Source: a virus (Duplodnaviria; Caudoviricetes). Taken from it: 64,000 bases of DNA. The notes beneath the pieces were generated by a model. The model ran no database searches and was not told the DNA's origin. It saw only the letters and a list, made by a program, of their open reading frames with translations. The stretch lies in the IMG/VR virus record IMGVR_UViG_3300032332_001507, positions 30,178 to 94,177 of that record. One strand, written 5' to 3'. The position numbers and the translations under genes are program-made. The stretch's first letter is position 1, and every line of letters begins with the position of its first letter. Positions 32,594 to 58,964 of this stretch are shown one piece after another.

Positions 32594-32617
32594 AACGAGC
32601 TCATAATCAAAGTCGAC

Positions 32618-32672
32618 AACCCACCTGCTTAAAGAGAGCGGGTGGGTTTACTCAGAGGAGTTCGTATATTTA
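32618..32672 (+). terminator. Terminator hairpin + early promoter
   Basis: AACCCACCTGCT...AGCGGGTGGGTT; GTGG-N17-CGTATATTTA. Confidence 0.7.
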
Positions 32673-32691
32673 CCTCATAATAATTAAACAC

Positions 32692-32880
32692 ATGAAAAAA
32701 TTTATCGTTACAGAAACAATACCAGCAACCATAGAGTATACCTACTATGTTGAGGCTGAGAATGAAGAACAAGCACTAGAAATAGTGATGGATGGTGATG
32801 CAGAGGAAACGGCTACAATGAGATGGGTTGAAGAAGGTGACGGTGAGTGGGAAGTAGAAGAAGAAAAAGAAGAAAAGTGA
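32692..32880 (+). CDS. Small acidic early protein (start revised to ATG 32692)
   Basis: MKKFIVTET...VEAENEEQALE; E-rich. Confidence 0.7.
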   Translation: MKKFIVTETIPATIEYTYYVEAENEEQALEIVMDGDAEETATMRWVEEGDGEWEVEEEKEEK

Positions 32881-32888
32881 GAAAAAAC

Positions 32889-32919
32889 GTGCCTCTAGGA
32901 AAAACAGGTCGTATATTTA
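32889..32919 (+). promoter_or_regulatory. Early-type promoter
   Basis: GTGC-N17-CGTATATTTA. Confidence 0.7.
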
Positions 32920-32955
32920 AAGCATAATAATTAATAACAAATAAAAATAAAGGTT

Positions 32956-33126
32956 ATGAGCACAGAAAACAAAACAAAAGGACGCCCAGTAGTGGCAGGT
33001 AGCGCACGTCAAGCACGTTTAGCAGCACAAGCAGCTCGAAAAGAAGCAAATGGTGGAGTAGTTAAGCGTGGACGCCCAGCGAAACCAAAAACAGAAACCG
33101 TAGAAGATAGTGTAGTGGAAGCCTAA
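32956..33126 (+). CDS. 56-aa basic protein with two AT-hook-like GRP motifs (not in ORF track)
   Basis: MSTENKTKGRPV...VVKRGRPAKPK; follows promoter. Confidence 0.75.
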   Translation: MSTENKTKGRPVVAGSARQARLAAQAARKEANGGVVKRGRPAKPKTETVEDSVVEA

Positions 33127-33176
33127 CCGGTAAGGTAACCCAGGGGTGGGTGCGACGGCACTCACCCTTTTAAAAA

Positions 33177-33262
33177 GCCGAAGTGGTGGAACTGGTAGAC
33201 ACGCAGGACTTAAAATCCTGTTGCTAGAAACAGCAGTGCGGGTTCGATTCCCGCCTTCGGTA
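33177..33262 (+). tRNA. tRNA-Leu(TAA)
   Basis: GCCGAAG/CTTCGGT acceptor, CAGGA-CTTAAAA-TCCTG anticodon arm, long variable arm, GCGGG-TTCGATT-CCCGC T arm; no encoded CCA. Confidence 0.93.
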
Positions 33263-33266
33263 CAAA

Positions 33267-33334
33267 TGATTAGAGCAGTTAAGGTCATGCCTTAAAGGAA
33301 TGCAGACAGTGGAGATGAGCGTCCCACCTAATCA
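33267..33334 (+). ncRNA. Putative small structured RNA
   Basis: TGATTAG/CTAATCA closing stem enclosing TTAAGG/CCTTAA and GTGG/CCAC hairpins. Confidence 0.35.
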
Positions 33335-33444
33335 AATATAATGAGGGAGGCCCTTAGGCAAGGCTCTATCTGCCGGAACGTATGCCGGTTAGACTAAATA
33401 AAAACTCACTCACGGGATTCAAGCGATGCAAAGCACCCATTAAC

Positions 33445-33517
33445 TAGACCCAGACCTGATCAGTCTGGGTTTTATTTGAAAAATAAGTTGGCCTTTAAAA
33501 TAGGTTTATTATATTGG
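33445..33517 (+). terminator. Terminator followed by variant early promoter
   Basis: AGACCCAGAC-CTGATCA-GTCTGGGTTT; TTGG(33488)-N18-TATATTG. Confidence 0.6.
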
Positions 33518-33547
33518 ATATAATTAATAATTAAATAAATAAAAGTT

Positions 33548-33751
33548 ATGCGTTTAAATCGTACAGCAAAAATGGCATTTTGGAATGCCCGTAAGCAAAG
33601 TGGTGACACCAACCGTATTGCAGAGATGACAGGCTACTCAGTGAGCCACGTGTCAAACATGACAAACGGACGTCGCACCGTAACAGAAGATGTAGCTAAC
33701 GCTATGTATTCAATCTCTAGCAAGCGCAAGAAGCTTAGCAAAATGGCCTAA
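33548..33751 (+). CDS. Small HTH DNA-binding protein
   Basis: RIAEMTGYSVSHVSNMTNGRR XRE-like HTH. Confidence 0.75.
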   Translation: MRLNRTAKMAFWNARKQSGDTNRIAEMTGYSVSHVSNMTNGRRTVTEDVANAMYSISSKRKKLSKMA

Positions 33752-33777
33752 ATGTAGGTCGAGACCATGTGTGTTTT

Positions 33778-33837
33778 AAGAGCGATTCGAAAGAGTCGCT
33801 CTTTTTTTGGCGTTAGCAGAATTCGTTCGTATATTTA
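33778..33837 (+). terminator. Terminator + early promoter
   Basis: AAGAGCGATTC-GAAA-GAGTCGCTCTT-TTTT; TTGG-N17-CGTATATTTA. Confidence 0.75.
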
Positions 33838-33861
33838 CAAAATAATAAAAACACAAAACAC

Positions 33862-34698
33862 ATGAGTAATTTAGTAATTAAAAGAAGAGGCAGACCAGCC
33901 AGTGCAAACAAGCAAACAGCACCAGCTGCAGTAAGCACATTTGATCCAACAGCAATGAGAATTGTAACAGGAGCAGAATTGACGTTTGATGAATCGATCT
34001 TCCGTCCAATGAGAACGGATACGATCATAGACGATATCTTGAGCACCAACCGAGGCTTGATGCCAGCAACCAACATGATCATTTGCGGTGGACCCGGATC
34101 AGGAAAAACAACAATAGTATTGGACATGATGTCCAAGTGGACTAGACAAGGTTATAAGACGTTGTTTGTGTCAGGAGAAATGGACGAGATCGGTTACTAC
34201 AAGTACTGTCGTCGCATGCCTAATATTGCAAACGTGCCTACCTTGTTTTTAAAGAACTATGCTACGAGTGTCAAAGAAGCACTTGAGCATGCGTTTCAAG
34301 AAGGATACGAGATCATTGCAATTGACTCAGTAGCAGAAGTGGTTGACATGTACAAAGACGCTTACCGCACAACAGAGAGTGCAGCTGAATTGTGGTTTCT
34401 AGACTTGCAGACCAGACACAAGAAAGGAGGCAACGACGAGAACATGTACACTGCATTCATCAACATTCAGCAAGTAACTAAATCAGGTGATTTCAGTGGA
34501 TCAAACAGATTAAAACACATGACTGATGCAATGTGCTCGATCAAGAAAGAGAAAGACGGAGATACCAGAACATTAGCATTCAGCAAGAACAGAGATTGTG
34601 ATACGAGCAATTCGATTCAATTCAGAATCGGCTTGAATCAAGTAGAATACAGCTATTCAGAAGCAAATGAAGCTGACTTCGAAGGTGAGCCAGAATAA
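33862..34698 (+). CDS. RecA-superfamily (RadA/Sms-like) ATPase with N-terminal AT-hook-like motif
   Basis: GGPGSGKTT, FVSGEM, IAIDS, QVTKSGDFSGSNRLKHMTD, KNR; KRRGRP. Confidence 0.8.
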   Translation: MSNLVIKRRGRPASANKQTAPAAVSTFDPTAMRIVTGAELTFDESIFRPMRTDTIIDDILSTNRGLMPATNMIICGGPGSGKTTIVLDMMSKWTRQGYKTLFVSGEMDEIGYYKYCRRMPNIANVPTLFLKNYATSVKEALEHAFQEGYEIIAIDSVAEVVDMYKDAYRTTESAAELWFLDLQTRHKKGGNDENMYTAFINIQQVTKSGDFSGSNRLKHMTDAMCSIKKEKDGDTRTLAFSKNRDCDTSNSIQFRIGLNQVEYSYSEANEADFEGEPE

Positions 34699-34720
34699 TG
34701 TGTGTGTTTTAATTATGAAG

Positions 34721-34781
34721 AGGTGGAAGCGAAAGCTTCCACCTTTTTCTTTGGCAGTTGAAAAATTCAGTCGTATATTTA
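34721..34781 (+). terminator. Terminator + early promoter
   Basis: AGGTGGAAGC-GAAA-GCTTCCACCT-TTTT; TTGG-N17-CGTATATTTA. Confidence 0.75.
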
Positions 34782-34810
34782 CAGCATAATAATTAAAAAA
34801 ATTAAATAAC

Positions 34811-35254
34811 ATGAAAACAGTAATGGAACAGTTGATGGAAATCCAAGACAAATTAGATGTTTTAAAAGCACAAGCGCAGCCAGAAGTAGAATGTGATGGT
34901 GTATGTGGGTGTGGATGTGATGAACCAGAAACAGAAACGCCCCAAAAGGTTACACTTACAAATCGAACAGTAGTTAAACTTACATTCACTGAAGAGCAGG
35001 TGATTGCGATCGCTACAGAGCTGGTAAGGCGAACAGTAGATGTATGTAAGGAGGCAGTTACAAATACTAATTTAGAGGACGGTGATTTTATTAGTTTAGA
35101 GTTGAATTACAACAACCAGATCGAAACCACCTTGAATAGTGATGATATTGTTGAATGCATGATCAGTGAAATCGATGATTATGTGAATGTGGATTCTGAT
35201 TCAGTAGCAGATGAAATAGGCAGTATTATAGGGTATTTGAATATTGAGTGTTAA
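34811..35254 (+). CDS. Acidic hypothetical early protein with Cys cluster
   Basis: CDGVCGCGC; D/E-rich. Confidence 0.65.
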   Translation: MKTVMEQLMEIQDKLDVLKAQAQPEVECDGVCGCGCDEPETETPQKVTLTNRTVVKLTFTEEQVIAIATELVRRTVDVCKEAVTNTNLEDGDFISLELNYNNQIETTLNSDDIVECMISEIDDYVNVDSDSVADEIGSIIGYLNIEC

Positions 35255-35285
35255 TTTTCATGTGTGTTTTAATTATAGAGAGATC

Positions 35286-35340
35286 GGGAGCAAATGCTCC
35301 CACTCTTGTTTGGAGTCCAGAATGTTTGAGCGTATATTTA
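35286..35340 (+). terminator. Terminator-like hairpin + early promoter
   Basis: GGGAGC-AAAT-GCTCCC; TTGG-N17-CGTATATTTA. Confidence 0.7.
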
Positions 35341-35365
35341 CCCCATAATTAAAAACCATAAACAC

Positions 35366-35623
35366 ATGAAAGTTGAATTTGAAAACATTGAAACATTATT
35401 TACCTACCAATTGCAAGCGATATTGGATCAGACGGAAGCCGAGATTGCTGAGGTGAAGAACCAGATAAAGCTGATGGGTGAGGAATTAGAGGTACTGGGT
35501 AAAGAACCAGGCGAAGACGATATGATCATGGTGAATATGGCAGCTCAATTTGTGGCGCTAGCCAATAAGATCAAGTATACGGTTAAAGCAGAATTATTAG
35601 ACAGACAACACGAATTAAATTAA
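35366..35623 (+). CDS. Hypothetical early protein
   Basis: ORF after promoter. Confidence 0.65.
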   Translation: MKVEFENIETLFTYQLQAILDQTEAEIAEVKNQIKLMGEELEVLGKEPGEDDMIMVNMAAQFVALANKIKYTVKAELLDRQHELN

Positions 35624-35631
35624 ATAAATAT

Positions 35632-35835
35632 ATGGCAAACGAAAGCAGATCAAACGGAATAGGGATCGGGATGATCTTATTCATTGTATTCCTAGTTTTA
35701 AAATTAACAGGCACCATCGACTGGAGCTGGTGGTGGGTAACAAGTCCACTATGGATCCCATTCGCAGCAGCAATGGTGATATTAGGAATAGTGGGTGTAA
35801 TAGCAATGGTGATCGAATACATCAACAACAAATGA
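35632..35835 (+). CDS. Small two-TM membrane protein (LKL...IDWSWWWV..PLW family)
   Basis: Motif common in phage membrane proteins. Confidence 0.7.
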   Translation: MANESRSNGIGIGMILFIVFLVLKLTGTIDWSWWWVTSPLWIPFAAAMVILGIVGVIAMVIEYINNK

Positions 35836-36380
35836 AGACGCTTGTAGTACACCCAGACGATCGATCAACCGATTTCCTCAGACCGATCTATCAGAACATA
35901 CCTGGGGCTACGGTGATCACTAAGAACATCACCGATGAAACACTGATGAGTGTGATCAGAGCAAATGATCGAATAATAATGCTTGGGCATGGGTCACCGT
36001 CTGGCTTATTTAATGTGTCTGGGATCGGGGTGGGGTTGTTTGCAATTGGATCCCAACACGTTGATGTGCTAACGACCAAGGAATGTATTTACATCTGGTG
36101 TAACGCCGATCAGTTTATTGATAAGCACAATCTGAACGGTCTGTACTCAGGTATGTTTGTGAGTGAGGTAGCGGAAGCCAGATATTGCGGGTTACCGTCT
36201 GCAACCCAAGAGCAGGTGGATCAATCAAATGATGAGTTCGCTAGGATGCTCGGCTTAACTCTGACAGCAACCCCGGATCTGGGGCAGGTGCACTCGACAG
36301 TGGGATCAGAATATCAGTTATTAGCTGAGAGTAATGAGGTAGCAAAATACAACGTTGAAAGATGGTATTATAAAAATTAA
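35832..36380 (+). CDS. Putative clan CD (caspase/gingipain-like) cysteine peptidase (start revised to ATG 35832)
   Basis: IIMLGHG and IYIWC strand-end His/Cys motifs. Confidence 0.5.
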   Translation: MKTLVVHPDDRSTDFLRPIYQNIPGATVITKNITDETLMSVIRANDRIIMLGHGSPSGLFNVSGIGVGLFAIGSQHVDVLTTKECIYIWCNADQFIDKHNLNGLYSGMFVSEVAEARYCGLPSATQEQVDQSNDEFARMLGLTLTATPDLGQVHSTVGSEYQLLAESNEVAKYNVERWYYKN

Positions 36381-36388
36381 TGTTTTGT

Positions 36389-36419
36389 TTGGTTGTTTGA
36401 GATTGTGGTTGTATATTTA
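36389..36419 (+). promoter_or_regulatory. Early-type promoter
   Basis: TTGG-N17-TGTATATTTA. Confidence 0.7.
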
Positions 36420-36444
36420 CAGCAATAATTAAAACACAAATAAA

Positions 36445-36687
36445 ATGGTAAAATTAAAAAATGAAGTTACTGGATTTGTTTATGATTCAGTTTACGGTTA
36501 TGTTAAAACAATTTTTGATCAACCTTTAACTGAAAATGAAATTAAGTTAATTGAGAGAGTATTAAATGAAGATGATGTATTATTTACTGATAATGAAGGT
36601 TTAAATGATATGTTTACATTTGATTGTAAAGAGGATTTAGAGAATAATGAAGAAGGTTTTAATGAGATTTTAGAGTGGGTTAAATAA
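36445..36687 (+). CDS. Small acidic early protein, C-poor gene
   Basis: Own promoter; about 10 C in 243 nt. Confidence 0.7.
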   Translation: MVKLKNEVTGFVYDSVYGYVKTIFDQPLTENEIKLIERVLNEDDVLFTDNEGLNDMFTFDCKEDLENNEEGFNEILEWVK

Positions 36688-36706
36688 ACCTACTTTAATA
36701 TTTTAT

Positions 36707-36737
36707 TTGGTTATTTAAAACAGTATTCGTATATTTA
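36707..36737 (+). promoter_or_regulatory. Early-type promoter
   Basis: TTGG-N17-CGTATATTTA. Confidence 0.75.
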
Positions 36738-36762
36738 AAACATAATTAAAAAAATAAAACAT

Positions 36763-36957
36763 ATGAAAAATTTTGTTGTGATTAGTAAAGAAGACAGTAG
36801 TGATTATTTTATTGTAAGTGACTTAAATGAGTTGATCAATGAAATGTTTGAGGTTGATTTGTTGAATGGTGATTCATTTGAAACTGTTAGAGGTTATTTA
36901 TTTAATAATTTTATTGTGTTTGAGTCTGAAAGTAAAATAGATGAAGTTTGGTATTAA
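36763..36957 (+). CDS. Small acidic early protein, C-poor gene
   Basis: Own promoter; about 6 C in 195 nt. Confidence 0.7.
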   Translation: MKNFVVISKEDSSDYFIVSDLNELINEMFEVDLLNGDSFETVRGYLFNNFIVFESESKIDEVWY

Positions 36958-36993
36958 AGTGATCAGATTTAAGGGGTTAAAAATGATCAGATT

Positions 36994-37021
36994 AAAGGGT
37001 GACTTAGGTTACCCTTTATTT
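36994..37021 (+). terminator. Intrinsic terminator
   Basis: AAAGGGTGAC-TTAG-GTTACCCTTT-ATTT. Confidence 0.65.
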
Positions 37022-37059
37022 GTTTAAAAAATATTATCTAAAAAAATATATTATTTTAT

Positions 37060-37090
37060 TTGTTTAATTAAAAATTAAATTGTATATTTA
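37060..37090 (+). promoter_or_regulatory. Early-type promoter, C-less variant
   Basis: TTGT-N17-TGTATATTTA. Confidence 0.65.
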
Positions 37091-37113
37091 CAGAAATAAT
37101 TAAAATAAATAAT

Positions 37114-37392
37114 ATGAAAAAAGTAATTGAATTTAAGAAGTTTTTAGATGAGAATGTTAATGAGATAAAAGATTTATTAGTTGATGTTTTTGAGTGTGAT
37201 GAGGATGATGTAGATAAAGTTGTTAGTTTTGAGGATGATAAGTTTGGAGGTTTTATTGGTTGTAATGAAAAAGGTGAAGGTGTAGTGTTTGGTTGTAATT
37301 TGTATGAGTATGAAGTTGATGATGAAGATGTAAGTGTAGGAATGGAAGTAATTGAAGGTAAGAAAGTATATTTTATGTGTTATGATTTTTAG
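37114..37392 (+). CDS. Highly acidic 92-aa early protein encoded by a cytosine-free gene (DNA-mimic/anti-defence candidate)
   Basis: Own promoter and terminator; about 26 D/E; no C in coding strand. Confidence 0.75.
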   Translation: MKKVIEFKKFLDENVNEIKDLLVDVFECDEDDVDKVVSFEDDKFGGFIGCNEKGEGVVFGCNLYEYEVDDEDVSVGMEVIEGKKVYFMCYDF

Positions 37393-37417
37393 TTAGTTGA
37401 AGTGTAGTTGTTAAATT

Positions 37418-37452
37418 AAAGGATATATTTTAATTAATGTATCCTTTTTTTA
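37418..37452 (+). terminator. Intrinsic terminator
   Basis: AAAGGATATATT...AATGTATCCTTT-TTTT. Confidence 0.6.
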
Positions 37453-37460
37453 TTTTATAT

Positions 37461-37491
37461 TTGGTTAGTTAAAAATTAAATTATATATTTA
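37461..37491 (+). promoter_or_regulatory. Early-type promoter variant
   Basis: TTGG-N17-TATATATTTA. Confidence 0.65.
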
Positions 37492-37519
37492 CAGCATAAC
37501 AATTAAAACCTTAAAACAC

Positions 37520-37630
37520 ATGAAAACAAAAACCAGTATTTTAGATCACATTAAGTTTGTAGTTACAACAATTAGTTTGCTTAGTGCTTGGTGTTTAGCA
37601 ATGCTTTGGTTACTAACGGTAAATCGTTAA
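37520..37630 (+). CDS. 36-aa single-TM peptide (not in ORF track)
   Basis: MKTKTSILDHIKFVVTTISLLSAWCLAMLWLLTVNR; TAAAACACATG leader. Confidence 0.6.
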   Translation: MKTKTSILDHIKFVVTTISLLSAWCLAMLWLLTVNR

Positions 37631-37726
37631 ATAAACGCGTTTAACCCAATGTCTATGTTAAATCGCATGGGGTTGTGGAAAACATGTTTAATGCGAGTAA
37701 ATGCGCGCTTACGTTAATATTTTAAA

Positions 37727-37760
37727 CACCCACCACATTTTACGGTGGGTGTCTTTTTTT
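37727..37760 (+). terminator. Intrinsic terminator
   Basis: ACACCCACC...GGTGGGTGT-C-TTTTTTT. Confidence 0.7.
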
Positions 37761-38015
37761 AGGGGAGTATGCGTATATATATGCCGTACGTATGCCGTAC
37801 ATATATAGTAATACGGCAGTGTATCTCCCGTACGCGTTACTGTCCATGTACGTGTATCCGTATCCTTTGATGGTACTACCCGCACCTTCAACTCGTAAAC
37901 GTATAACGCCGGCCGAGCGTATATACGTATATCCCAACAACGCAACATGGAATTTCGAATTACCCCTTTTGGCAAAAAAATATGAAAATTAAAGTTTCTC
38001 TTCTTGCAAAAAAGT

Positions 38016-38046
38016 TTGGCATCGACAAAGTATATACGTATATTTA
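38016..38046 (+). promoter_or_regulatory. Early-type promoter whose spacer is the 18-bp repeat copy 2 (38022-38039)
   Basis: TTGG-CA-TCGACAAAGTATATA-CGTATATTTA. Confidence 0.8.
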
Positions 38047-38064
38047 CCGCATAAAATAAAGGTT

Positions 38065-38292
38065 ATGACACCAAAAGAAAAAGCAAATGAATTATTTAGT
38101 AGATACTATGTTATGTTGCTAAAAACAGATTCTGATATTTCGGAAGAAATTACAATATCCTTGTTATCAAAACAATGTGCATTGATAGCAGTAAATGAGA
38201 TATTGTCTATGGGTATAATGTCTGATAGTGGTGATTGGAGAATGGCTAAATCTTATTGGGAAGAAGTTAAAAAAGAAATAGAAAAGATATGA
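38065..38292 (+). CDS. Hypothetical phage protein
   Basis: MTPKEKA...ALIAVNEI...YWEEVKKEI. Confidence 0.65.
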   Translation: MTPKEKANELFSRYYVMLLKTDSDISEEITISLLSKQCALIAVNEILSMGIMSDSGDWRMAKSYWEEVKKEIEKI

Positions 38293-42015: not shown

Positions 42016-42308
42016 TGACATTAGTAATAATATTAGGTTTAATGGTCGTGATCTTAGGATACACGACCTTTAATCTTCTTAGGAAACTCGAAAAACAAGA
42101 GGATGCTATGAATAATCAAGCTACAATTCTAGCTTCTTATTTATCATACTTGAACAAGATCTCAGATATAATTGAATTCTCAGATAAGAAATTAAAGGAA
42201 GTAGATCATAAGGGTTCATTTAAAACAGACGATGAAGTAGGTTTTTTCTTTGAAGAAATTAAACAAATACAAAGTACTTTAAATCAATTTAAAGTTAAAA
42301 ATTTATGA
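42012..42308 (+). CDS. Single-TM coiled-coil protein
   Basis: N-terminal TM; F..DDEVG.FF. Confidence 0.6.
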   Translation: MMTLVIILGLMVVILGYTTFNLLRKLEKQEDAMNNQATILASYLSYLNKISDIIEFSDKKLKEVDHKGSFKTDDEVGFFFEEIKQIQSTLNQFKVKNL

Positions 42309-43006
42309 TTGAGGTGAAAGAAAAAAAGAATACTCAATATTTTACTCAAGATACTGAGGATGCAATTGTATTATATAATGGCCTTACAGATCAAACAGAA
42401 CGAGATATTCTATATAGAACTCGTATCCATTATGCTTTTTTTAAGTTAACAGAAAATATTATCCATACTTTTAAATTTTATTATACTGAAGTAGATAATA
42501 TTGAAGATTTACAACATGAGGTAATTACATTCTTACTCACTAAATTACATTTATTTGACCCAAGTAAAGGTGCTAAAGCATATTCTTACTTTGGAACAAT
42601 TGCTAAACGTTATTTAATTAATAGTAATAATAAAAATTATAAAAAACGAGTTGAAAAAGCACCTGTTAGTGAGATTGAATCTAATGAATCATTTTCATAT
42701 CGGATAGATGAGGGTTCTGAAAATGATAAATTAATTCATTTTATAGATCAATATGTAATTTATTGTACAGATAATATTAATGAATTATTCCCTAAAAAGA
42801 CAGATGCTCAAATAGCAGATGCTATTCTAGAGTTATTCCGTAAACGTGAGAGTATAGACGTCTTTAATAAGAAGGCATTGTATATATATATTCGTGAAAT
42901 TATTGATGCTAAAACTCCTAAAATCACTAAGATAGCCGATAGACTATATGATATATTTAAACAACATTATTTCTATTATCTAGAAAATGGACATACAGAT
43001 TTCTAA
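42305..43006 (+). CDS. Phage RNA polymerase sigma factor (gp55-like)
   Basis: EDLQHE...LHLFDPSKGAKAYSYFGTIAKRYL, sigma region-2-like. Confidence 0.7.
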   Translation: MIEVKEKKNTQYFTQDTEDAIVLYNGLTDQTERDILYRTRIHYAFFKLTENIIHTFKFYYTEVDNIEDLQHEVITFLLTKLHLFDPSKGAKAYSYFGTIAKRYLINSNNKNYKKRVEKAPVSEIESNESFSYRIDEGSENDKLIHFIDQYVIYCTDNINELFPKKTDAQIADAILELFRKRESIDVFNKKALYIYIREIIDAKTPKITKIADRLYDIFKQHYFYYLENGHTDF

Positions 43007-43011
43007 TGTCC

Positions 43012-43019
43012 ATATTTAT
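43012..43019 (+). promoter_or_regulatory. Late-type promoter at start of structural block
   Basis: ATATTTAT; further copies at 45881, 48519, 56195, 61155, 63127, 63523. Confidence 0.65.
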
Positions 43020-43033
43020 AAAAAATAAATATT

Positions 43034-43375
43034 ATGGAAGGCTTAGATAATGTAGTATTTGGTGGTAAAAAATTTTCTGATATTTTAGAGGAAATATATA
43101 ACAACCAAAAGAAAAAAGATAAACAAATATCTGCTTTAATAGCAGAATTAAAACCTCTTGTCCATGAGATAGGTGATGCTACTTTAATTGTTCCTCTAAT
43201 TAAAGAATACTTAGAAATAAGTGTTAAAAATGATGAACAACTAATTAAAATGGCTACTATTGTCCAACGTATGGTTAATAATGCCTCATCTAATGGTGAT
43301 GGTGGATTTGGTATCTCTGAAGAAGAAAAAACACAACTATTAGCTGAATTAGATAAATTTAAAGGAGGAGAATAA
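43034..43375 (+). CDS. Helical hypothetical late protein
   Basis: ORF after late motif. Confidence 0.6.
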   Translation: MEGLDNVVFGGKKFSDILEEIYNNQKKKDKQISALIAELKPLVHEIGDATLIVPLIKEYLEISVKNDEQLIKMATIVQRMVNNASSNGDGGFGISEEEKTQLLAELDKFKGGE

Positions 43376-44677
43376 ATGCCTGATTTTAAATTTGGGGCTC
43401 AAGGTATTAATGAGACCTACTCCTCAGTATCCAATTATAGTTCTTTAAATTCTTCAACTAATGCTCCTTTAATAAATGTAGCTCGAGTTAAGAAAATTAT
43501 ATTAGATGATTCTGATCAAGAGATATTTAGACAATTTGGAGAGTGGAATAGTATAGGTACTATATTTTGGTCTCCAATAGGTAAAAAATTAGATAAAGAT
43601 GGAGTCACAGAATATAATCCATCAACATATGCTTTACCATTATTTCCTAATATAAAACATTATCCATTAATAAATGAGATTGTTTATATTGTACAATTAC
43701 CAACAAATGATATTCTAACTGGGAGACCTACTAATAATGGTTGGTATTATTTCCCACCATTAAATATTTGGAATAGTCAATTCCATAACGCGTTACCTGA
43801 AGAAGATAATACTGCTAATGACTCTAATCAAATTGGTGATTATGCTTCATCATTTGCTGGACAAGTTAGACGTCCTGAAGATAATAGTACTGAAATAAAT
43901 TTAGGTTCTACTTTTGATGAACAAACTGGTATAAATAATCACCCATTACTACCATATGAAGGAGATGTTATTTATGAGGGTAGATGGGGTAATTCTATTA
44001 GATTTGGTTCTACAGTTAAAAATGCTGTTATAAGTAATGAGTGGTCAAGTGTAGGAACAAATGGAGATCCTATTACTATTATTAGAAATGGACAAGCAAG
44101 TTATACTAGTGATTCTTGGGTTCCTGAAACTGAAGATATTAATAAAGACGCATCTGATATTTGGTTAACAACAACTCAAAAATTACCTATCACACCTAGT
44201 AGTAATTTAACTGATTCTTACGCTAAATCTAAAGCACCTGAAGATTCTAGAGAATACTCTAAAAATCAAATAGTTTTAAATTCAGGACGTTTAACATTTA
44301 ATGCTAAGAATGACGCTATAATTTTAGGAGCTAATAAAACAATACATTTAACAGCTAATGATTCAGTTAATGCTGATGCTAGTAAATATATAGCTTTAAC
44401 CGCCCCAAAAGTATATTTAGGTTCATCACAAGGTGTTGAAGGTACTAATATACAATCAGCAGTATTAGGAGAGGATCTAAACTCATTATTAGGAGAAATA
44501 TCTCAATATTTATCTACCCTAAATACAGCATTCTCTAGTGCTACAGATAGTTTAGCTGTACCTATAGTATCATTACTTAGTGTAGCTGCTCCTGCATCTT
44601 TAGCTTTAAGTCAAAGACTCCAAGCAGTAGTTAATGGAAAAAATTTATTATCAAATAAAGTAAAAATATCCAAATGA
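43376..44677 (+). CDS. Baseplate hub/central spike (gp5/Vgr-like)
   Basis: YPLINEIV OB-fold-like segment, EGDVIYEGRWGNSIRFGS, beta-helix-like C-terminus, AVLGEDL. Confidence 0.6.
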   Translation: MPDFKFGAQGINETYSSVSNYSSLNSSTNAPLINVARVKKIILDDSDQEIFRQFGEWNSIGTIFWSPIGKKLDKDGVTEYNPSTYALPLFPNIKHYPLINEIVYIVQLPTNDILTGRPTNNGWYYFPPLNIWNSQFHNALPEEDNTANDSNQIGDYASSFAGQVRRPEDNSTEINLGSTFDEQTGINNHPLLPYEGDVIYEGRWGNSIRFGSTVKNAVISNEWSSVGTNGDPITIIRNGQASYTSDSWVPETEDINKDASDIWLTTTQKLPITPSSNLTDSYAKSKAPEDSREYSKNQIVLNSGRLTFNAKNDAIILGANKTIHLTANDSVNADASKYIALTAPKVYLGSSQGVEGTNIQSAVLGEDLNSLLGEISQYLSTLNTAFSSATDSLAVPIVSLLSVAAPASLALSQRLQAVVNGKNLLSNKVKISK

Positions 44678-45876
44678 GTGAAATAGAACAATACGCGATA
44701 ATAAAAGGTAAAGTTGTAGACTCAAACGGAGAACCCTTACGTAAAGTAACTGTAACTATAACTGTATCTCCTAGAAACTCTAAAAATGATAGAACTAATA
44801 AAGACGGGGAATACTCATTTAAATTCCCAGCTACAGATATAAAAGATATACAATTAAATTACTCTTTAGAAAAATACACAACTAAATCAGTCACATCAGT
44901 ATATCAAACATCTGAAACTAAGACTGAGCAAATATATGATGTTCCAAGGATAACATTAACACCTATCCCTAACCCAATCCAACAATTAACTTCTCAAATT
45001 AATCAGGATTTAACTAAGCAAGAAAATCAAATAGCTGGAAAACAAGTAAAAATTCCATTTGACGCTAAAATAGCTAACTCATTAAATAATAAAAAAGAAA
45101 CTATTAAAGCTACTCTAATTCCATTTGTTATAGGACTATTACTAGAATTTGGAACTACAGCAGCTCAAAATGTTATTAATAGAAAAACTACACTTACAGA
45201 CAGTTGTCCTTCTTCTTCTAAAATAAATGAGATAATAAAAAAACGAAATAAATTAGTAAAACAATTAAATAATTTATATTCCTCTATAACTATCTTAACT
45301 AAATTATTAAAATTAGGAGAGTTACAAGTTAAAGCTTTAAATATTGGTATAAATACTATATTTTTACTTCCTATACCCGCTGGAGGAATTCAATTACTTG
45401 GAATCCCATCATTAACTGTAGGACAAATAGAACTTATTGGAGATTTAACTGATTTATTAAAATCTCAACTTAAAAAAAATAATGTTGGAGTTGATATATT
45501 AACTATCACATTAGCAAATATTGGTTTATTACTTGGTGTAATAATTAATTATTTAAATGGATTGGACACTCTATTAGCACAATGTGCTGTAGATCAAAAT
45601 ATGGATTTAGAACAGTTAAATAATGAAATTAATGCTTTATCAAATGCTACTGTGACAGCAACTCAAAGTAAAAATAATACTTATAAAGGATTTACTCTTG
45701 AAGTAAAAATAAATGAAAAAAATCAAAGTAAATTTATACAACGTTTTGCTCAAGCATTAAATAAGCAAGGTGTTCCTGTTTTAAAAACAGAACCTTCATT
45801 TGCCTCTGACCCAAGTGTATTAATTTCTCAATTAAAATTTATAATAGATTCAAATCCTAATTTAACAGCTGAATAA
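44674..45876 (+). CDS. Structural/hypothetical protein with carboxypeptidase-regulatory-like N-domain
   Basis: IKGKVVDSNGEPL...TNKDGEYSF. Confidence 0.5.
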   Translation: MSEIEQYAIIKGKVVDSNGEPLRKVTVTITVSPRNSKNDRTNKDGEYSFKFPATDIKDIQLNYSLEKYTTKSVTSVYQTSETKTEQIYDVPRITLTPIPNPIQQLTSQINQDLTKQENQIAGKQVKIPFDAKIANSLNNKKETIKATLIPFVIGLLLEFGTTAAQNVINRKTTLTDSCPSSSKINEIIKKRNKLVKQLNNLYSSITILTKLLKLGELQVKALNIGINTIFLLPIPAGGIQLLGIPSLTVGQIELIGDLTDLLKSQLKKNNVGVDILTITLANIGLLLGVIINYLNGLDTLLAQCAVDQNMDLEQLNNEINALSNATVTATQSKNNTYKGFTLEVKINEKNQSKFIQRFAQALNKQGVPVLKTEPSFASDPSVLISQLKFIIDSNPNLTAE

Positions 45877-45894
45877 TCAAATATTTATAATCAT

Positions 45895-46263
45895 ATGAAA
45901 ATCGATATTTTAAAAAAATTAATCAAAGAAGCAGTACGTGAAGCAATTCAAGAAGAATTAAAAGACATTCTACTTGAAGCAGTTAAATCACCTAAAACAG
46001 TAGTACAGGAAACTTACACTGGCACCCCATTCTTAAACCAACCAGTAATGGCTGCTAATCCAACAACATCAACCGTAAATCATGATCTTAGACGCAATTT
46101 AAGAAATATGATTGGAGGTGAATTTGACACTGTTGTCACTGCTAACTCATCACATGCCCAACCAGCATACACTCCACCCCCAGTAAATACAGCGGGTGAA
46201 GGATCAAGTTTACCAGGAGGTGAAGTAGGTTTAGACCAAATAATGGGACTAATGAATAGATAA
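45895..46263 (+). CDS. Late protein with LKKLIKEAV N-terminal motif
   Basis: ATATTTAT at 45881. Confidence 0.6.
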   Translation: MKIDILKKLIKEAVREAIQEELKDILLEAVKSPKTVVQETYTGTPFLNQPVMAANPTTSTVNHDLRRNLRNMIGGEFDTVVTANSSHAQPAYTPPPVNTAGEGSSLPGGEVGLDQIMGLMNR

Positions 46264-46664
46264 TGGCTTATAGAATACCAAATAAAAATCCTATTGATGT
46301 TGGCTCAAGAGTAGCTATTGGGGTATCTTTACCTTTTAATACTCCTCAAGTGTTCACTCAAACTTATACTACTCAAGAACAAATTAAATCTAATATCATT
46401 AATTATATTTTAACTGACAGAGGAGAAAGAGTATTCAACCCCACATTTGGAAGTAATATTAGAGCATCAATATTTGAAAACATAACCCCAAATTTATTAC
46501 AAAATCTTCAAATCACATTACAGGATGATTTGAAAATAAATTTCCCAAGTATAAATTTTTCTAAAATAGAAATAACACCAGATTATGATATGAATACAAT
46601 TAATATAGCAATATATTACAGTGTTTATAATAATCCTATCACTGAAATTAATATAACATTATAA
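46263..46664 (+). CDS. Baseplate wedge protein, gp25-like
   Basis: QIKSNI...LTDRGERVFNPTFGS...FE. Confidence 0.85.
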   Translation: MAYRIPNKNPIDVGSRVAIGVSLPFNTPQVFTQTYTTQEQIKSNIINYILTDRGERVFNPTFGSNIRASIFENITPNLLQNLQITLQDDLKINFPSINFSKIEITPDYDMNTINIAIYYSVYNNPITEINITL

Positions 46665-46665
46665 T

Positions 46666-48513
46666 ATGGCCGACGAAAAGAAAAATATAAATTATATAAA
46701 TAAGGATTTTAATCAATTTAAAACATCATTAGTAGATTATGCTAAAACATATTTTTCTACTGTATATAACGATTTCACACCATCTTCACCAGGAATGATG
46801 TTCATGGAAATGTCTGCGTATATAGGTGATGTTTTATCATTTTATTTAGATAATCAAATTCAAGAGACATTTTTACAATTTACTCGCCAACAAAATAATT
46901 TATATAATTTGGCTTACACAATGGGTTACAAACCTAAAGTAACTTCAGTTTCCACAGTGAATATAGATGTATATCAACAAGTACCTTCAAACGCTGGTTC
47001 ACCAGATTATAATTACTCATTACAAGTTAAACCAAATACTGTAATAAAACCATCAGTTGGAGATTCTTTCTTCTTAATTCAAGATCCAATAGATTTTAGT
47101 TTCTCTAGTTCATCAGACCCAACAGAAACTACTTTATATAGTACATCTCCTGATTATTATCTTTTAAAGAAAACAAGAAAAGCAATTTCAGCTGAAATAA
47201 AAACAACTACTTTTACTTTTGGTCCTCCTCAGAAATTTTTGACTGTTGAATTAAGTAATTCTAATATAATTGGAATCTTAGATATAGTAGATAGTGATGG
47301 GAACACTTGGTATGAAGTACCATATCTAGCTCAAGAAACTATTTATGATACTATAAAAAATACTAATGTAAATAATCCTACATTATTTTCAGACAGTAGT
47401 AATACTCCATATCTACTTCAACTTAAAAAAGTTCAACGACGTTTTGTAACTCGTTTTATAAATGAAACAACATTACAAATTCAATTTGGAGCAGGTACCA
47501 ACACCTCAAATACAGATGAAGAGATTATTCCTAATCCAGATAATGTAGGTTTAGGTTTACCTTATAAACAATCAAAACTAAATACAGCATTTTCACCTGC
47601 TAACTTTTTATATACTGATACTTATGGTATCTCTCCTAATAATACTACATTAACAGTTAGATATTTAGTTGGAGGTGGATTACAAGCCAATGTAGCAGCA
47701 GGAACATTATCAGTTATTCCTAATAAAAATACAGATTTTGTTTTTAACAATACTGGATTATCAGCAGTTACCGCTCAATATGTTTTTAATAATATAGTAA
47801 CAAATAATCCATCAGCAGCTAGTGGAGGAGGCCCAGGAGATTCAGATGAAGATATTCGTCTAAAATCATTAGGTACATTTATTACTCAACAAAGAACAAT
47901 AACCCAAGATGATTATTTAATTAGAGCTTTATCTTTACCCTCAGATTATGGAAACATAGCTAAAGTATATGTCGAACCAGAAAAAATATCAAGTTTATTA
48001 CCTGGTGAAACACCATCAGTTCTTAATATGTTTATTTTAGCTTATAATGCTGATAAAAAATTAATAACTTCTTCTCCATCATTAAAACAAAATTTATCAA
48101 CTTATATTTCACAATATAGAGTAATAAACGACTCAATTAAAATTAAAGACGCCTTTATCATTAACATAGGTGTAGATTTTGAAATAATTGTTTTACCCCA
48201 ATATAATAATAATTTAGTATTAACTAACTGTATAACAGCCTTACAAGATTATTTTAATATTGATAAATGGCAAATCAATGAACCTATAATTTTAAAAGAT
48301 TTATTTATTCTTTTAGATAAAATTGAAGGAGTTCAAACTGTCAAAGCAGTTAATATAACTAACAATTCAGGAATATCTTTAGGATACTCAGCTTTTTCAT
48401 ATGATATACCTGGAGCTATCCAAAATAATATTATATATCCAAGTTTAGATCCTATGATATTTGAAGTAAAATACCCTAATAAAGATATTAAAGGTAAAGT
48501 TGTATCTTTTTAA
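46666..48513 (+). CDS. Baseplate wedge protein, gp6/J-like
   Basis: KDFNQFK, AYIGDVLSFYLD, LAYTMGY, GGG...DSDEDIR, QRTITQDDY. Confidence 0.85.
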   Translation: MADEKKNINYINKDFNQFKTSLVDYAKTYFSTVYNDFTPSSPGMMFMEMSAYIGDVLSFYLDNQIQETFLQFTRQQNNLYNLAYTMGYKPKVTSVSTVNIDVYQQVPSNAGSPDYNYSLQVKPNTVIKPSVGDSFFLIQDPIDFSFSSSSDPTETTLYSTSPDYYLLKKTRKAISAEIKTTTFTFGPPQKFLTVELSNSNIIGILDIVDSDGNTWYEVPYLAQETIYDTIKNTNVNNPTLFSDSSNTPYLLQLKKVQRRFVTRFINETTLQIQFGAGTNTSNTDEEIIPNPDNVGLGLPYKQSKLNTAFSPANFLYTDTYGISPNNTTLTVRYLVGGGLQANVAAGTLSVIPNKNTDFVFNNTGLSAVTAQYVFNNIVTNNPSAASGGGPGDSDEDIRLKSLGTFITQQRTITQDDYLIRALSLPSDYGNIAKVYVEPEKISSLLPGETPSVLNMFILAYNADKKLITSSPSLKQNLSTYISQYRVINDSIKIKDAFIINIGVDFEIIVLPQYNNNLVLTNCITALQDYFNIDKWQINEPIILKDLFILLDKIEGVQTVKAVNITNNSGISLGYSAFSYDIPGAIQNNIIYPSLDPMIFEVKYPNKDIKGKVVSF

Positions 48514-48532
48514 TTTTTATATTTATTAACAT

Positions 48533-49657
48533 ATGGCTATATATAAATTATTCCCCACCAAAGATGCAACTATATATTCTAGATATCCTGCTAAAAATAC
48601 AGGTTTAGATGAAATATTAGATGTAAGTATTGAAGATGCTCAAACTAGTGGTAATCCTCAAGCTAGTCGATACCTAATACAATTCTCATCTACAGAAATA
48701 ACAGATGTATTAACTAATAAAGTTAGTGGTTCATCATGGAGTGCTTCTTTAACTAATTATTTAGCTTATGGAGATGGTTTAAATATAGATACTACTTTAG
48801 ATTTTTACCCAATATCTGGATCATGGGTAATGGGAACAGGAAAATTTGCTTATTCTCCTGAATATACAAATGGTGTAAGTTGGACATATAGAGGAGTATC
48901 AGGTAGTAACGCCTGGACTACATCTAGTTTTTCTCCTTATGTAACAGCATCTTATGGTTCAACTAAGGGTGGGGGTACTTGGTATACTGCGTCGTCTAAT
49001 CCATCTATAGTACCATATGTGACTTCATCAATAACGTTTACTTACTTCGATGATTTTGATATTAATACTAATGTTACTAATATAGTTAAAGCATGGACTA
49101 GTAGTTTAATTGAAAACAATGGAATCATTGTTAAACAGAGAACAGAATTCATTAATGACCCTAATTATAATATTACTTTAAGATATTTTTCAAGAGATAC
49201 CCATACTATATATCCTCCAAGTTTAGATATTAAATGGAGAGATTATATTTTTAATACAGGATCATCTACAACAACCATTTTAAATGAACTACCAGCTACT
49301 GTAGCATTAAATGAAAACCCAGGAATATTTTATCCTGAAAGTATAAATAGATTTAGAGTAAATAGTAGACCTGAATATCCATATAGAGTATGGCAGACGT
49401 CTTCTTATTATACTGTAAATTATTATTTACCAACAGCTTCATATTATGCTATAAAAGACTTGGATACTAATGAATATGTTGTTAACTTTGATGATCAATT
49501 CACTCAGTTAAGTGCTGATAATCAAAGTAGTTATTTTGATTTATATATGAATGGTTTACAACCTGAAAGATATTACTCAATTTTAATTAAAACTACTATT
49601 AATGGTAGTACTTTAATATTTGATAATGATTATAATTTTAAAATAATAAATGGCTAA
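48533..49657 (+). CDS. Virion structural protein (DNRLRE-like beta-sandwich)
   Basis: PTKDATIYS, SRYLIQF, NVTNIVKAW, NNGII. Confidence 0.55.
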   Translation: MAIYKLFPTKDATIYSRYPAKNTGLDEILDVSIEDAQTSGNPQASRYLIQFSSTEITDVLTNKVSGSSWSASLTNYLAYGDGLNIDTTLDFYPISGSWVMGTGKFAYSPEYTNGVSWTYRGVSGSNAWTTSSFSPYVTASYGSTKGGGTWYTASSNPSIVPYVTSSITFTYFDDFDINTNVTNIVKAWTSSLIENNGIIVKQRTEFINDPNYNITLRYFSRDTHTIYPPSLDIKWRDYIFNTGSSTTTILNELPATVALNENPGIFYPESINRFRVNSRPEYPYRVWQTSSYYTVNYYLPTASYYAIKDLDTNEYVVNFDDQFTQLSADNQSSYFDLYMNGLQPERYYSILIKTTINGSTLIFDNDYNFKIING

Positions 49658-49994
49658 TTATCAATTAAACAAAACATTATATCCTAGAAGTATATATGAA
49701 AATGTAATTGATACTACATTTACACAAAATACTCCCCCACCACCTATAGAAGACACTATAACTGTGGAGCAATTTTTTACATTTTATGATAAATTATTTT
49801 ATGATATTCCGGTGGCTGGTGATATAAATTCACATGCTTACATTGTAAAACGTAGTGGAGAATATATTAACTTTGATAATACAAATGAAGATATCCAAGT
49901 ATTATTAGATGAAATAACCTCTTTACAACAAGAATTATTAGCAGCTAACCAAACAATACTAAATCTCCAAATCTCAGGATCAACAACTATATAA
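49650..49994 (+). CDS. Structural-region hypothetical protein
   Basis: Tiled ORF with C-terminal coiled coil. Confidence 0.55.
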   Translation: MANYQLNKTLYPRSIYENVIDTTFTQNTPPPPIEDTITVEQFFTFYDKLFYDIPVAGDINSHAYIVKRSGEYINFDNTNEDIQVLLDEITSLQQELLAANQTILNLQISGSTTI

Positions 49995-49995
49995 G

Positions 49996-52900
49996 ATGGC
50001 TACAATTGTTACTCAAATATTTTCCCCAACATCATACAATCCTTCAGATGAAGTATTATTAAATCCATCTATAACACAATCTATTTTTGATCCTTCTCAA
50101 AACTATATAGAGTATACTATACAAACTTTAGACGAGTCATTCACTACAACAGATTATAGTTATAATAGATATTCTTTTCCTAAAAGTGGAGTCACATCAA
50201 ATGATATTGGGGATATTATAATTAGTCCTGAAAATGATATAGCTAATTATGGATTTACTAGTGGAGAATATAATGTTTATTATAATTTTTTAAAAAACGA
50301 GTTAAACACCTCTTTTAGTAATAGATCATTTTACATTAAAGAAATATCAGCTGATAGAACAGAAGTAATATTAGGATACACTACAGATCAAGTCACTACT
50401 ATAACAGATGTTAATAATTTTAAAACTCAATTAAATTCCAATCCTAACTATTTCCAAGATTTTTATTTAAATTTTGGTGAAAATAATTTAGTTATTGCTA
50501 ATAACATAGCAGTTAATAATGAAACATTTGATGTTTTAATTAATCTATATGAAGCTTTACCTTTAAATATTAACACTAAAGATACATTATGGGTTGTTAC
50601 TCAAATTGCAAATGAATTAACATTTAATATAACCTTTACACCAGAAGTTATTGTTCCAACAATAACAACATTTCCTTTAAATAGTCCTAATTTTAACTTA
50701 GATGTTAAAGATCAAACTAATAATTCAACAGGATATGTAACATATGAATCATTAATTACTAGTTCTTTATTATCAACTTCATATTCTCAATTAAATAATT
50801 TAATATCATCATCTGGTATTGAAATTGGAATTGATTATACTGATTTTTCAAATTTTATACATTTTTCATCTGCTGTAACTAGAATTAATAATTTTTATTA
50901 TAAAAAACAATTAATTGACCAATACCAGCAAGAAATTAATGTTCTTAATGGAATAACATCATTAGTCACATCTAGTAATATATCTATCCTAACAAATAAA
51001 ATCAATAACATAATTGAAAATTTTGACGGATATGAATATTTTTTATATTATGATACTGGATCTTATTCCTATCCTAAATCTGGCTCTACAGTTCCTTATA
51101 CTCTATATCCAGCTGGGGCTCCACAAGTAAGATCTTGGCTAGGAGATGCTGATAATTTAACAGGAATATTAGGAAGTGCTTCTATATATGATCAATCTAA
51201 TTTAGATTATTTATATAATACAATCCCTAACTTTATTCAAGAAGATCCACAAAACGATCCATATAAATTATTTGTAGAGATGGTCGCTCAATCTTATGAT
51301 AATATTTGGATTTACTATAAAGACGTAACTAATAGATACAATGCTGATAATAGATTAGATTCTGGTATTTCTAAAGATTTAGTAGCTAATGCTCTTAGAT
51401 CATTTGGAGTTAAATTATATCAAAATAATTTCTCAACTAATGATCTATACTCAGCGTTTTTAGGATACGGAGCTATAAATCCTGAAACTACAGGATCAAC
51501 TCCAGTAACAGCGGGATCAGGTCAAGAATATATAAAAAATTATATTACAGCATCTTATGATGCTTCAGTAATGCCTTTAGATGATGTAAATAAAGAAACA
51601 TATAAACGTTTATATCATAACTTACCATATTTAGCTAAAACTAAAGGTACTATACCTGGTTTAAGAGCATTAATAAATTGTTTTGGTATTCCTGATACTA
51701 TTTTAAGAATTAGTGAGTTTGGAGGTAGAGATAAAGATACTTCTACTTATGACTATTTTGACCAAAAATATAATTATGAGTATTTAGCTAATGGGACTAA
51801 TTATGTTACTTCTAGTTTTGTTCTTAATTCTAATTGGGGAGCAGATAATAGTCGTCCTGAATGTATTCAATTTAGAATAAAACCTGGGGAATTACCAACA
51901 ACTAGTATACCGTATTCTCAAAGTATTTTAATCCTAAACACAGCATCTTCTGATATTTCTGCTTTAATACTTAGATATACAGGATCTGGATACGCAACTG
52001 CATCATATTCTGGCTCCACTTACTCAGCCTCATATCAATATGCTAATTTAGAATTTATCCCTAGAATAGGATCCCCAACTACATCAGCTAGTATATATTT
52101 ACCTTTTTATGACGAAGGATGGTGGTCTATAATGATTAATAGAACATCAACTACTGATTATACATTATATGCCGGAAATAAACTATATTATGATGGATAT
52201 GATGGAAACCAAATGGGCTTCATATCATCAGCATCTGTCACAGCGAACAGTGTTAATAATGGAGGATACAGTGGTAACAGCGCTAGCTTTGCTTCGGGTA
52301 GTATAACTATAGGAAGCAGTACTTATCAAAAATTTTCTGGGTCAATTCAAGAAATTAGATTTTGGTCTAAAACAGGCAGTGTAGAAGCTTTTAAGGACTT
52401 TACAATGAATCCTAGTTCAATAGATTATACAAGTTTAGAAAATGAATACTCAAACTATTTAGCTTTTAGATTACCACTAGGTAACGAATTATACACCGGA
52501 TCTACATCTGTTCATCCAAAAATATCTGGATCGTGGGTTACTACATCTTCGTTTGTTGGAACTTCCACAGCTTACATAAGTAATACTTCCTCATTTCAAT
52601 CTAATATAGAATCGTTTTTTTATGACCAACCTATAGCAGGTATTAAAAATAGAGTAACAGATAAAATACAAATTGTATCTTCAAGTTACCCAACAGGAAG
52701 TGTATTGTCACAATATCGTTCTTTAGAACAAACATATCCTACTTTAGGTAGTGAAACTCCCGATATTAATTTATTAGAAGTAGCATTTTCACCTCAAAAT
52801 GAAATTAATAATGATATTATTAGTTCTTTAGGATATTTTAATATAGGTGAATACATTGGTGACCCAAGACAAGTATCATCTTCTGCTACTACTTATCCTG

Positions 52901-54597: not shown

Positions 54598-54598
54598 T

Positions 54599-56179: not shown

Positions 56180-56223
56180 AAAACGCAATTTAATATATTT
56201 ATAAAAGACAATAATAAAAAAAT

Positions 56224-56880: not shown

Positions 56881-56899
56881 TAAAATATTATAAAAAAAT

Positions 56900-57946: not shown

Positions 57947-57949
57947 TGA

Positions 57950-58957: not shown

Positions 58958-58964
58958 ATAAGTT

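Follow-up and report, generated by a model that had tools for sequence, protein, structure and literature searches.

Transcription units that can be copied without one of the four nucleotides are familiar from the laboratory, where synthetic C-less or G-less cassettes, which encode no protein, serve in vitro transcription. Our searches of the full-text literature returned no published description of a natural nucleotide-free gene; they turned up neither a natural C-less gene nor an anti-viperin phage gene. The phage gene analyzed here resembles the synthetic cassettes in belonging to a unit that can be transcribed without one nucleotide, but it is natural, codes for a protein and is kept free of C by selection.

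In its layout the gene recalls the PeSL cassettes of the T4-type phages RB49 and phi1, in which small non-essential ORFs each lie between a strong host-type early promoter and a stem-loop terminator; these cassettes are grouped in a variable region, and recombination at recurrent regulatory elements shuffles them between phages (Arbiol et al. 2010, PMC2839356). The unit described below likewise appears to have a host-type promoter directly upstream of a small ORF, a stem-loop terminator closes it and two units upstream, and its presence is variable and its phylogeny incongruent. It differs in that nucleotide exclusion is not reported for PeSL cassettes and that its promoters are of the Bacteroidota type. 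A second comparison concerns phages that replace G. For the DpdA3 subfamily, complete replacement is described in immuto (fdPreQ1), phiST and CP220, the 7-deazaguanine nucleoside has been shown in the virion DNA of all three, and a fully G-replaced genome resists most enzymes with G-containing sites (Hutinet et al. 2023, PMC10516641). That literature covers modification and protection against restriction, and not template strands that avoid the modified base.

The window analyzed is a 64-kb stretch of a virus record of 94,177 bp, rated 55% complete. A base count of the window finds no C on the + strand from 37092 to 37442 (351 nt), and a single C, at 37091, between 37039 and 37442, in agreement with the preliminary description of this DNA. 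The 351-nt run is the longest C-free run of both the window and the whole record. The second longest in the record measures 88 nt, so that similar runs are not common and this one is unique in the genome; about 64 nt would be expected for the longest from base composition, and throughout the record runs without G, A or T stay at or below 68 nt. The probability of such a run is 6e-7 at 4% C, close to the earlier rough figure of 1e-6, and about 3e-23 per start at the genome-wide 13.8% C. The 4% had been attributed to neighboring genes, which is accurate for the two units immediately upstream (4.1% and 3.1%) and not for the remaining early units with the same promoter type, which contain 9 to 25% C. 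The run sits in a C-poor zone (36300-37500, 3 to 7% C per 100 nt) that is the only one of its kind in the record. A chance origin can be rejected on the basis of the run probability and of the C-free homologs presented below. An assembly artefact, which had been named as a possible refutation, is also excluded, since assemblies made independently from many samples also contain C-free homologs.

Directly upstream of the C-poor zone lies a region dense in GATC (35282-36307), with 21 GATC in about 1 kb compared with 2.9 per kb window-wide; it spans three early ORFs.

The features of the C-free unit and of its neighbors are given in Table 1. The promoters of the phage are of the Bacteroidota (Flavobacteriia) type: upstream of the C-free gene, TTTG (37059-37062) is separated by a 20-nt spacer from TATATTTA, and we take TTTG with TAnnTTTA-like elements to be the -33/-7 promoter type of Bacteroidota. 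About 25 copies of a promoter-plus-leader consensus are present, all on the + strand of the record, in the order TTGG, spacer, (C)GTATATTTACAG, CATAATAATTAAA, followed after about 20 nt by an ATG. Their density peaks at 32600-38100, usually with one copy per small gene. Two Cs of this consensus are replaced in the promoter of the C-free unit: CGTATA has become TGTATA, as already noted in the preliminary description, and the C preceding the predicted start has become A (ACAGC to ACAGA). The sole C left in this promoter, 37091, is about 4 nt 5' of the transcription start, which is predicted near 37095 from the spacing of the elements. The predicted leader consists of A and T only, with neither a Shine-Dalgarno sequence nor the 'ACAC' of the consensus leader. 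At the other end, the first Cs after the run (37443-37444) sit in the 3' arm of the terminator, whose fold has an energy of -15.7 kcal/mol (z = -4.2); the units of P0002 and P0003 end in similar hairpins. The structure of the message body is weak, yet like that of shuffled versions (z = -0.65), so that nothing here argues independently for selection toward an unstructured mRNA.

Table 1. Positions of the C-free unit and adjacent elements in the window
Feature	Position	Strand	Remarks
Upstream monocistronic unit P0003	36445..36687	+	80 aa, acidic, 4.1% C
Upstream monocistronic unit P0002	36763..36957	+	64 aa, acidic, 3.1% C
Promoter of the C-free unit	37054..37093	+	covered by repeat family D1; TATATTTA at 37083-37090
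C-free run	37092..37442	+	351 nt
Predicted 5' leader	37095..37113	+	start position predicted
ORF P0001	37114..37392	+	92 codons
Intrinsic terminator	37418..37454	+	12-bp hairpin at 37418-37447, then U run
Next promoter	37455..37494	+	90% identity to the promoter of the C-free cassette

The two promoters of Table 1 are direct repeats that bracket the C-free cassette. The second serves a 36-codon hydrophobic ORF (37520-37630) with a normal C content (12%). A tandem pair of 20-nt repeats, 90% identical and each containing TGATCA, is found at 36956-36999, between the stop codon of the 64-aa ORF and its terminator, and forms a hairpin of its own.

The C-free unit is an accessory early-gene cassette of an uncultured myovirus, probably of Flavobacterium-type hosts, and it is exchanged horizontally. 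The tree of the cassette gene conflicts with that of the neighboring ATPase gene: between the window and locus L012 the gene is 85% identical and the ATPase 65%, while between the window and L009 the values are 82% and 92%. In L012, moreover, the C-free gene lies on the opposite side of the ATPase gene. The P0001 family is absent from five relatives whose FolE is 81 to 96% identical, four of which are rated at least 92% complete. Three complete relatives (G001, G002 and G003) were screened for C-free tracts. G002 and G003 have no C-free gene, whereas G001 contains a 365-nt C-free tract with an acidic gene of 117 aa, unrelated to P0001, and, in addition, a nearly C-free gene for a 76-aa protein. 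Several protein families are thus represented among the C-free genes, which form accessory, exchangeable cassettes.

The product, P0001 (92 aa), contains no Ala, Pro, Thr, Gln or His, the residues that require C, as had been pointed out, and it also lacks Arg; its amino-acid set is reduced to 13 letters. The count of 26 D/E against 10 K is borne out as well. By our own estimate, random codons made of A, G and T would give more K+R than D+E, and the acidity is therefore a property of the protein rather than a by-product of the C-free code. On its alignment, AlphaFold2 predicts a confident fold (mean pLDDT 85.6), with two to three helices on a five-stranded sheet. P0001, P0002 and P0003 have no family match in Pfam, PHROGs or NCBIfam, and tblastn and megablast searches of GenBank phages gave no match to the gene or its region. 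For the P0001 model, Foldseek found nothing below E = 0.2 in PDB and BFVD, and VIA-align wide, the atlas fold search and the protein atlas returned no convincing fold. The best VIA-align match, at Z = 5.4, is to kinase N-lobes; weak matches of this kind recur (Z 3 to 5.4), but they are within background.

Anti-restriction factors are known among small acidic early proteins, Ocr being one example, and Ugi of PBS2 protects uracil-DNA from the host uracil glycosylase. P0001 may be compared with T7 Ocr and PBS2 Ugi in size, strong negative charge, early expression and patchy distribution, and with the DNA mimics Ocr and ArdA in being small and strongly acidic; sequence and fold searches found no similarity to Ocr or Ugi, and the likeness is one of analogy and not of membership. 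The small acidic early product that had been described is indeed distributed in the patchy manner typical of counter-defence genes.

Two gene calls join a middle or C-terminal part of the P0001 family to unrelated sequence (P0026, at 100-591 of L107, and P0025); in the L107 fusion the N-terminus is DUF4494-like. They are either recombinant cassettes or over-extended ORF calls.

The exclusion of C is a property of the family. In metagenomes, P0001 has 18 protein homologs at 58 to 91% identity, from which Ala, Pro, Thr, Gln and His are almost entirely absent; a scan of viral contigs gave no match with the single P0001 sequence and two loci with the alignment. DNA from 15 homologous loci was reduced to ten distinct genes, with 77 to 92% nucleotide identity to the window gene. 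Six of the ten contain no C and the other four contain 2 or 3, with C-free runs of 298 to 418 nt in the former and 190 to 255 nt in the latter. Exclusion of C thus persists despite divergence, and the possibility raised earlier that homologs would have a normal C content is refuted. The exclusion is not strict, however, as many leaders keep two Cs and four genes keep a few: the cost is incurred per C.

Substitutions point the same way. Among 123 variable alignment columns, 58 are A/G, 25 A/T, 15 G/T and 20 A/G/T, and only 5 involve C, compared with 207 of 385 in the neighboring ATPase gene (Fisher p = 1.3e-26). For the four phages used in this comparison, C takes part in 2 of 73 variable columns of the C-free gene versus 207 of 385 of the ATPase. 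At conserved codons ending in T or C, 2 of 15 columns vary, as against 28 of 38 in the control (p = 1e-4). Most pairs have a dN/dS of 0.1 to 0.6 at a dS of 0.2 to 0.6 (0.8 to 1.0 in two pairs, both including L009), and indels within the family are in frame; this is therefore a real coding gene that evolves inside a C-free alphabet. The residual Cs of the nearly C-free genes fall in 22 of 30 cases at codon positions 1 or 2, for which the encoded amino acid calls; they share no sequence context, and ACA is among them (L108, L117). This indicates that a cost per C is traded against the function of protein and leader, with neither an absolute ban nor avoidance of a motif. On the coding strand, selection removes C between approximately the start of transcription and the terminator's 3' arm, and the evolution of P0001 has therefore been confined to residues whose codons can do without C. 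Taken alone, this part of the account (cassette, mobility, protein and selection against C) is one that we hold with very high confidence.

The question arises as to what makes C costly, and the limits of the C-free runs bear on it. In the homologs, the runs end at the first C of the terminator 3' arm, with one exception (L118). At the 5' side, the leader is also C-free in the window gene, L009, L012 and L014; in L009 the entire promoter is C-free as well, and the run also covers the spacer. In the group L111-L117, ORF and 3' UTR are C-free and the 5' leader retains two Cs. Whether the limits follow the transcript had been proposed as a discriminating question: they do in the window gene, L009, L012 and L014, and not in the many homologs whose leaders keep two Cs.

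Exclusion bounded in this way could be directed at C in the RNA. Under this alternative, every C of a growing or completed message would be costly because of ddhCTP, the chain-terminating CTP analogue made by viperins, a shortage of CTP, or an RNase or modifying enzyme that acts on C, and genes needed under that condition would do without C. The cost per C, the match of the limits to the transcript in the four loci just named and the sharing of the trait by unrelated protein families are in line with it, and the accessory distribution fits a defence that is present in some hosts only. The Cs retained in many leaders speak against it. The individual agents also fare poorly. As far as we know, prokaryotic viperins do no harm to transcription by the host itself, and since the units use host-type promoters, ddhCTP should spare them; this candidate of the preliminary description is therefore not favored. 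An RNase of the MazF type that recognizes ACA, another of its candidates, is disfavored because the avoidance of C does not depend on context and the few tolerated Cs, which have no common motif, include ACA. We know of no CTP-depleting defence and of no C-specific RNase. Altogether, a target in the RNA seems to us unlikely.

A mutational origin was also considered, in which the non-template strand of an R-loop-prone, heavily transcribed unit would be deaminated (C to U to T), the G-rich, C-free state then sustaining itself and traveling with the cassette. The gene is indeed rich in T (38% versus 30% genome-wide), G is raised as well, and the C-bearing homologs are intermediate, with 5 to 6% C. 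Against this origin, neighbors under the same promoter type are normal in C, the tract has sharp limits, and the C-free run of L009 includes an untranscribed promoter and spacer. Spontaneous deamination of single-stranded DNA proceeds at about 1e-10 per second at 37 C. At this rate, to our knowledge, deamination adds at most roughly tenfold per infection, whereas the depletion exceeds 50-fold. Finally, silent T-to-C changes are missing while silent A/G changes are common. We consider a mutational explanation improbable.

Base composition along the genome brings in another candidate, avoidance of Rho, which loads on C-rich, G-poor, unstructured RNA; a C-free message would escape early termination. 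In Bacillus, avoidance of Rho is the force behind a purine bias of sense strands (Dierksheide et al. 2026, PMC13323073), and in this phage early and middle genes have more G than C (0.19 versus 0.135), whereas the late block does not (0.144 versus 0.155). The excess of G over C on the coding strand is what the C-free gene has in common with such biases and with purine loading of the Szybalski type. These are, however, graded, genome-wide and of a few percent, while here exclusion is total, confined to single accessory genes and accompanied by enrichment in T and a reduced amino-acid alphabet. Rho requires long stretches with C above G, so that a threshold would leave a few percent of C; instead, C stays at about 0.3%, and five amino acids are given up for it. 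Moreover, T-richness favors Rho (PMC13323073), the C-free gene is T-rich, and the transcripts are short (about 350 nt) and translated. Rho avoidance accordingly appears to us quite improbable as the cause.

All genes at positions 1-59000 of the window lie on the + strand. ORFs of at least 100 codons before 43 kb have a mean G of 0.191 and a mean C of 0.135, and the tail/baseplate block (43000-59000) has 0.144 and 0.155, respectively; the excess of G over C follows the genome region, which probably reflects expression class, and not gene orientation. A 233-aa protein encoded at 42305-43006 has a weak match to sigma-70 region 2 and is a candidate late-gene sigma factor of the phage.

Avoidance of restriction sites had also been proposed: a C-free strand excludes palindromes containing G or C, and the cassette would remain whole and open to transcription when other parts of the genome are cleaved. 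By construction, no such site is possible in the 351 bp. Palindromes made of A and T only are not clearly depleted, however (20 4-mers for 27.7 +/- 4.7 expected, and 4 6-mers for 7.7 +/- 2.9), the equally essential promoter keeps G and C in many homologs, and total removal of C far exceeds what avoidance of sites needs. A genome in which all G is replaced is, besides, already resistant to most enzymes with G-containing sites (PMC10516641). This explanation is weak, and we judge it very improbable.

There are indeed strong indications that the lineage replaces its guanines. The record begins inside a phosphoribosyltransferase gene, followed by FolE, and relatives with 92 to 96% identical FolE, syntenic with the record, carry a 7-deazaguanine cluster in the order DUF6610-like (DpdA3-like), QueC, QueD, QueE, HGPRT-like, FolE, MazG-like and family-B DNA polymerase. 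The DpdA3 site of these relatives lies about 4 kb upstream of the point where the record begins. The DpdA3-like gene is present in G001 and, adjoining QueC, in relative L021; QueC was found in all five relatives searched, and L021, itself a locus of G001, contains QueD and QueE as well. The Pfam TGT model detected no DpdA in the record or its relatives, as expected for the distant DpdA3 subfamily, and the gene surfaced only as a weak DUF6610 match and through tblastn with immuto and CP220. Aligned over 96% of its length, its product shares 36% identity with the protein annotated as DNA guanine transglycosylase in immuto_2-6A; with gp056 of the Campylobacter phage CP220, the identity is 34% (tblastn). 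The neighborhood is that of DpdA3 phages, with QueC, QueD, QueE and FolE next to the DpdA3 homolog, and the accompanying phosphoribosyltransferase and NTP pyrophosphohydrolase are the same as in immuto. By comparison with the relatives, the phage of the window probably has a DpdA3 of its own, and from this cluster the lineage very probably replaces its guanines. If G is replaced, a C-free message corresponds to a template strand without modified G.

This correspondence underlies the explanation that we favor, in which the cassette was selected to be C-free because the lineage modifies G, and its product counters the host. In incoming phage DNA, host RNA polymerase could copy a G-free template whatever modified G causes, be it that the polymerase reads more slowly or that a host defence directed at the modified base excises it or cuts the DNA. 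P0001 would then be a counter-defence or host-takeover factor, needed in some hosts only. In the variant that we prefer, accessory genes would be expressed while modified G is attacked or troublesome, and their products would counter just that, with a logic resembling that of the acidic uracil-glycosylase inhibitor of uracil-DNA phages. The G-free template had figured among the candidates of the preliminary description, and the DpdA3 cluster of the lineage now gives it circumstantial support. Its broader proposal, of an anti-defence gene written in a three-letter alphabet, is sustained as regards the exclusion of C, its uniqueness, the small acidic early product and the patchy distribution, while the anti-defence role and the pressure behind it are proposals.

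The distribution of the trait supports a role of the template G in part. The P0001 family is nearly C-free here, and its members with 5 to 6% C belong to another lineage, in which a record 62% complete shows neither QueC nor DpdA3. In the cultured Flavobacterium phage immuto, an acidic gene of 357 nt (68330-68686) is nearly C-free, with 5 C, and sits behind the same type of promoter and leader. On the other hand, G002 and G003 possess the deazaguanine cluster yet no C-free gene, P0001 has no recognized fold, no C-free gene is present in the genome of CP220 (DpdA3, 100% dADG), and phage iggy, where G is modified only in GA motifs, has no clear GA-free or TC-free tract. The C content of the other early units with the same promoter also means that modified template G is no hard block. 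Among base modifications of the template, bulky groups at position 7 of 7-deazaG inhibit bacterial RNA polymerase most strongly in vitro (PMC4838386). In that study, initiation rather than elongation seemed to be affected, which counts against this explanation. Considering the normal C content of other early genes, G002 and G003, CP220, iggy and the initiation effect together, slowing of the polymerase is therefore not the whole story.

As for attack on the modified base, we know of no host activity against 7-deazaguanine DNA. We place the whole chain, from G modification through selection of a C-free cassette to a product that counters the host, somewhat below an even chance. A wider version, in which G-replacing phages would keep a pool of exchangeable early cassettes with a G-free template, transcribable under attack and encoding acidic inhibitors of the attackers, is more tentative still and rather doubtful. 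If true, it would represent a new way to guarantee expression, written in the alphabet of the gene itself, and it would suggest that host defences against 7-deazaguanine DNA await discovery.

Whatever the cause, a natural protein-coding gene that selection restricts to three nucleotides and about 15 amino acids implies that individual bases on one strand of a single transcription unit are read by some agent in the infected cell, and no known mechanism is documented to act in this way. Identifying this reader would bring to light one of two things: a price of hypermodified DNA that phages must circumvent, or a host defence not yet described, along with its inhibitors. New in our analysis are a protein family that holds zero C across diverged members, the link with DpdA3 in its lineage together with the negative cases of G002, G003 and CP220, the C-bearing homologs in a lineage without detectable modification genes, and a cultured model, immuto. 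As the G of this phage is fully replaced and one of its genes is almost without C, the question lends itself to direct experiment. The C-free trait also provides a simple signature for candidate counter-defence genes in metagenomes.

Modification of cytosine, in turn, is not indicated; the 389-aa ThyA-like protein of the phage scores as a true thymidylate synthase. In this protein (12083-13252), an insertion of about 100 aa splits the Pfam match. Within the deazaguanine cluster of the record to which the window belongs (L015), upstream of the window, a GIY-YIG/NUMOD homing-endonuclease gene (1180-1821, record positions) lies between FolE and the next conserved gene and has no counterpart in G001 in the synteny map, which suggests a recent mobile insertion. 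The HGPRT-like phosphoribosyltransferase gene (L021 9467-9976; a cut ORF in L015, 2-430) adjoins FolE in the lineage and in immuto, and the enzyme may recycle guanine released by DpdA3 to GTP for the pathway.
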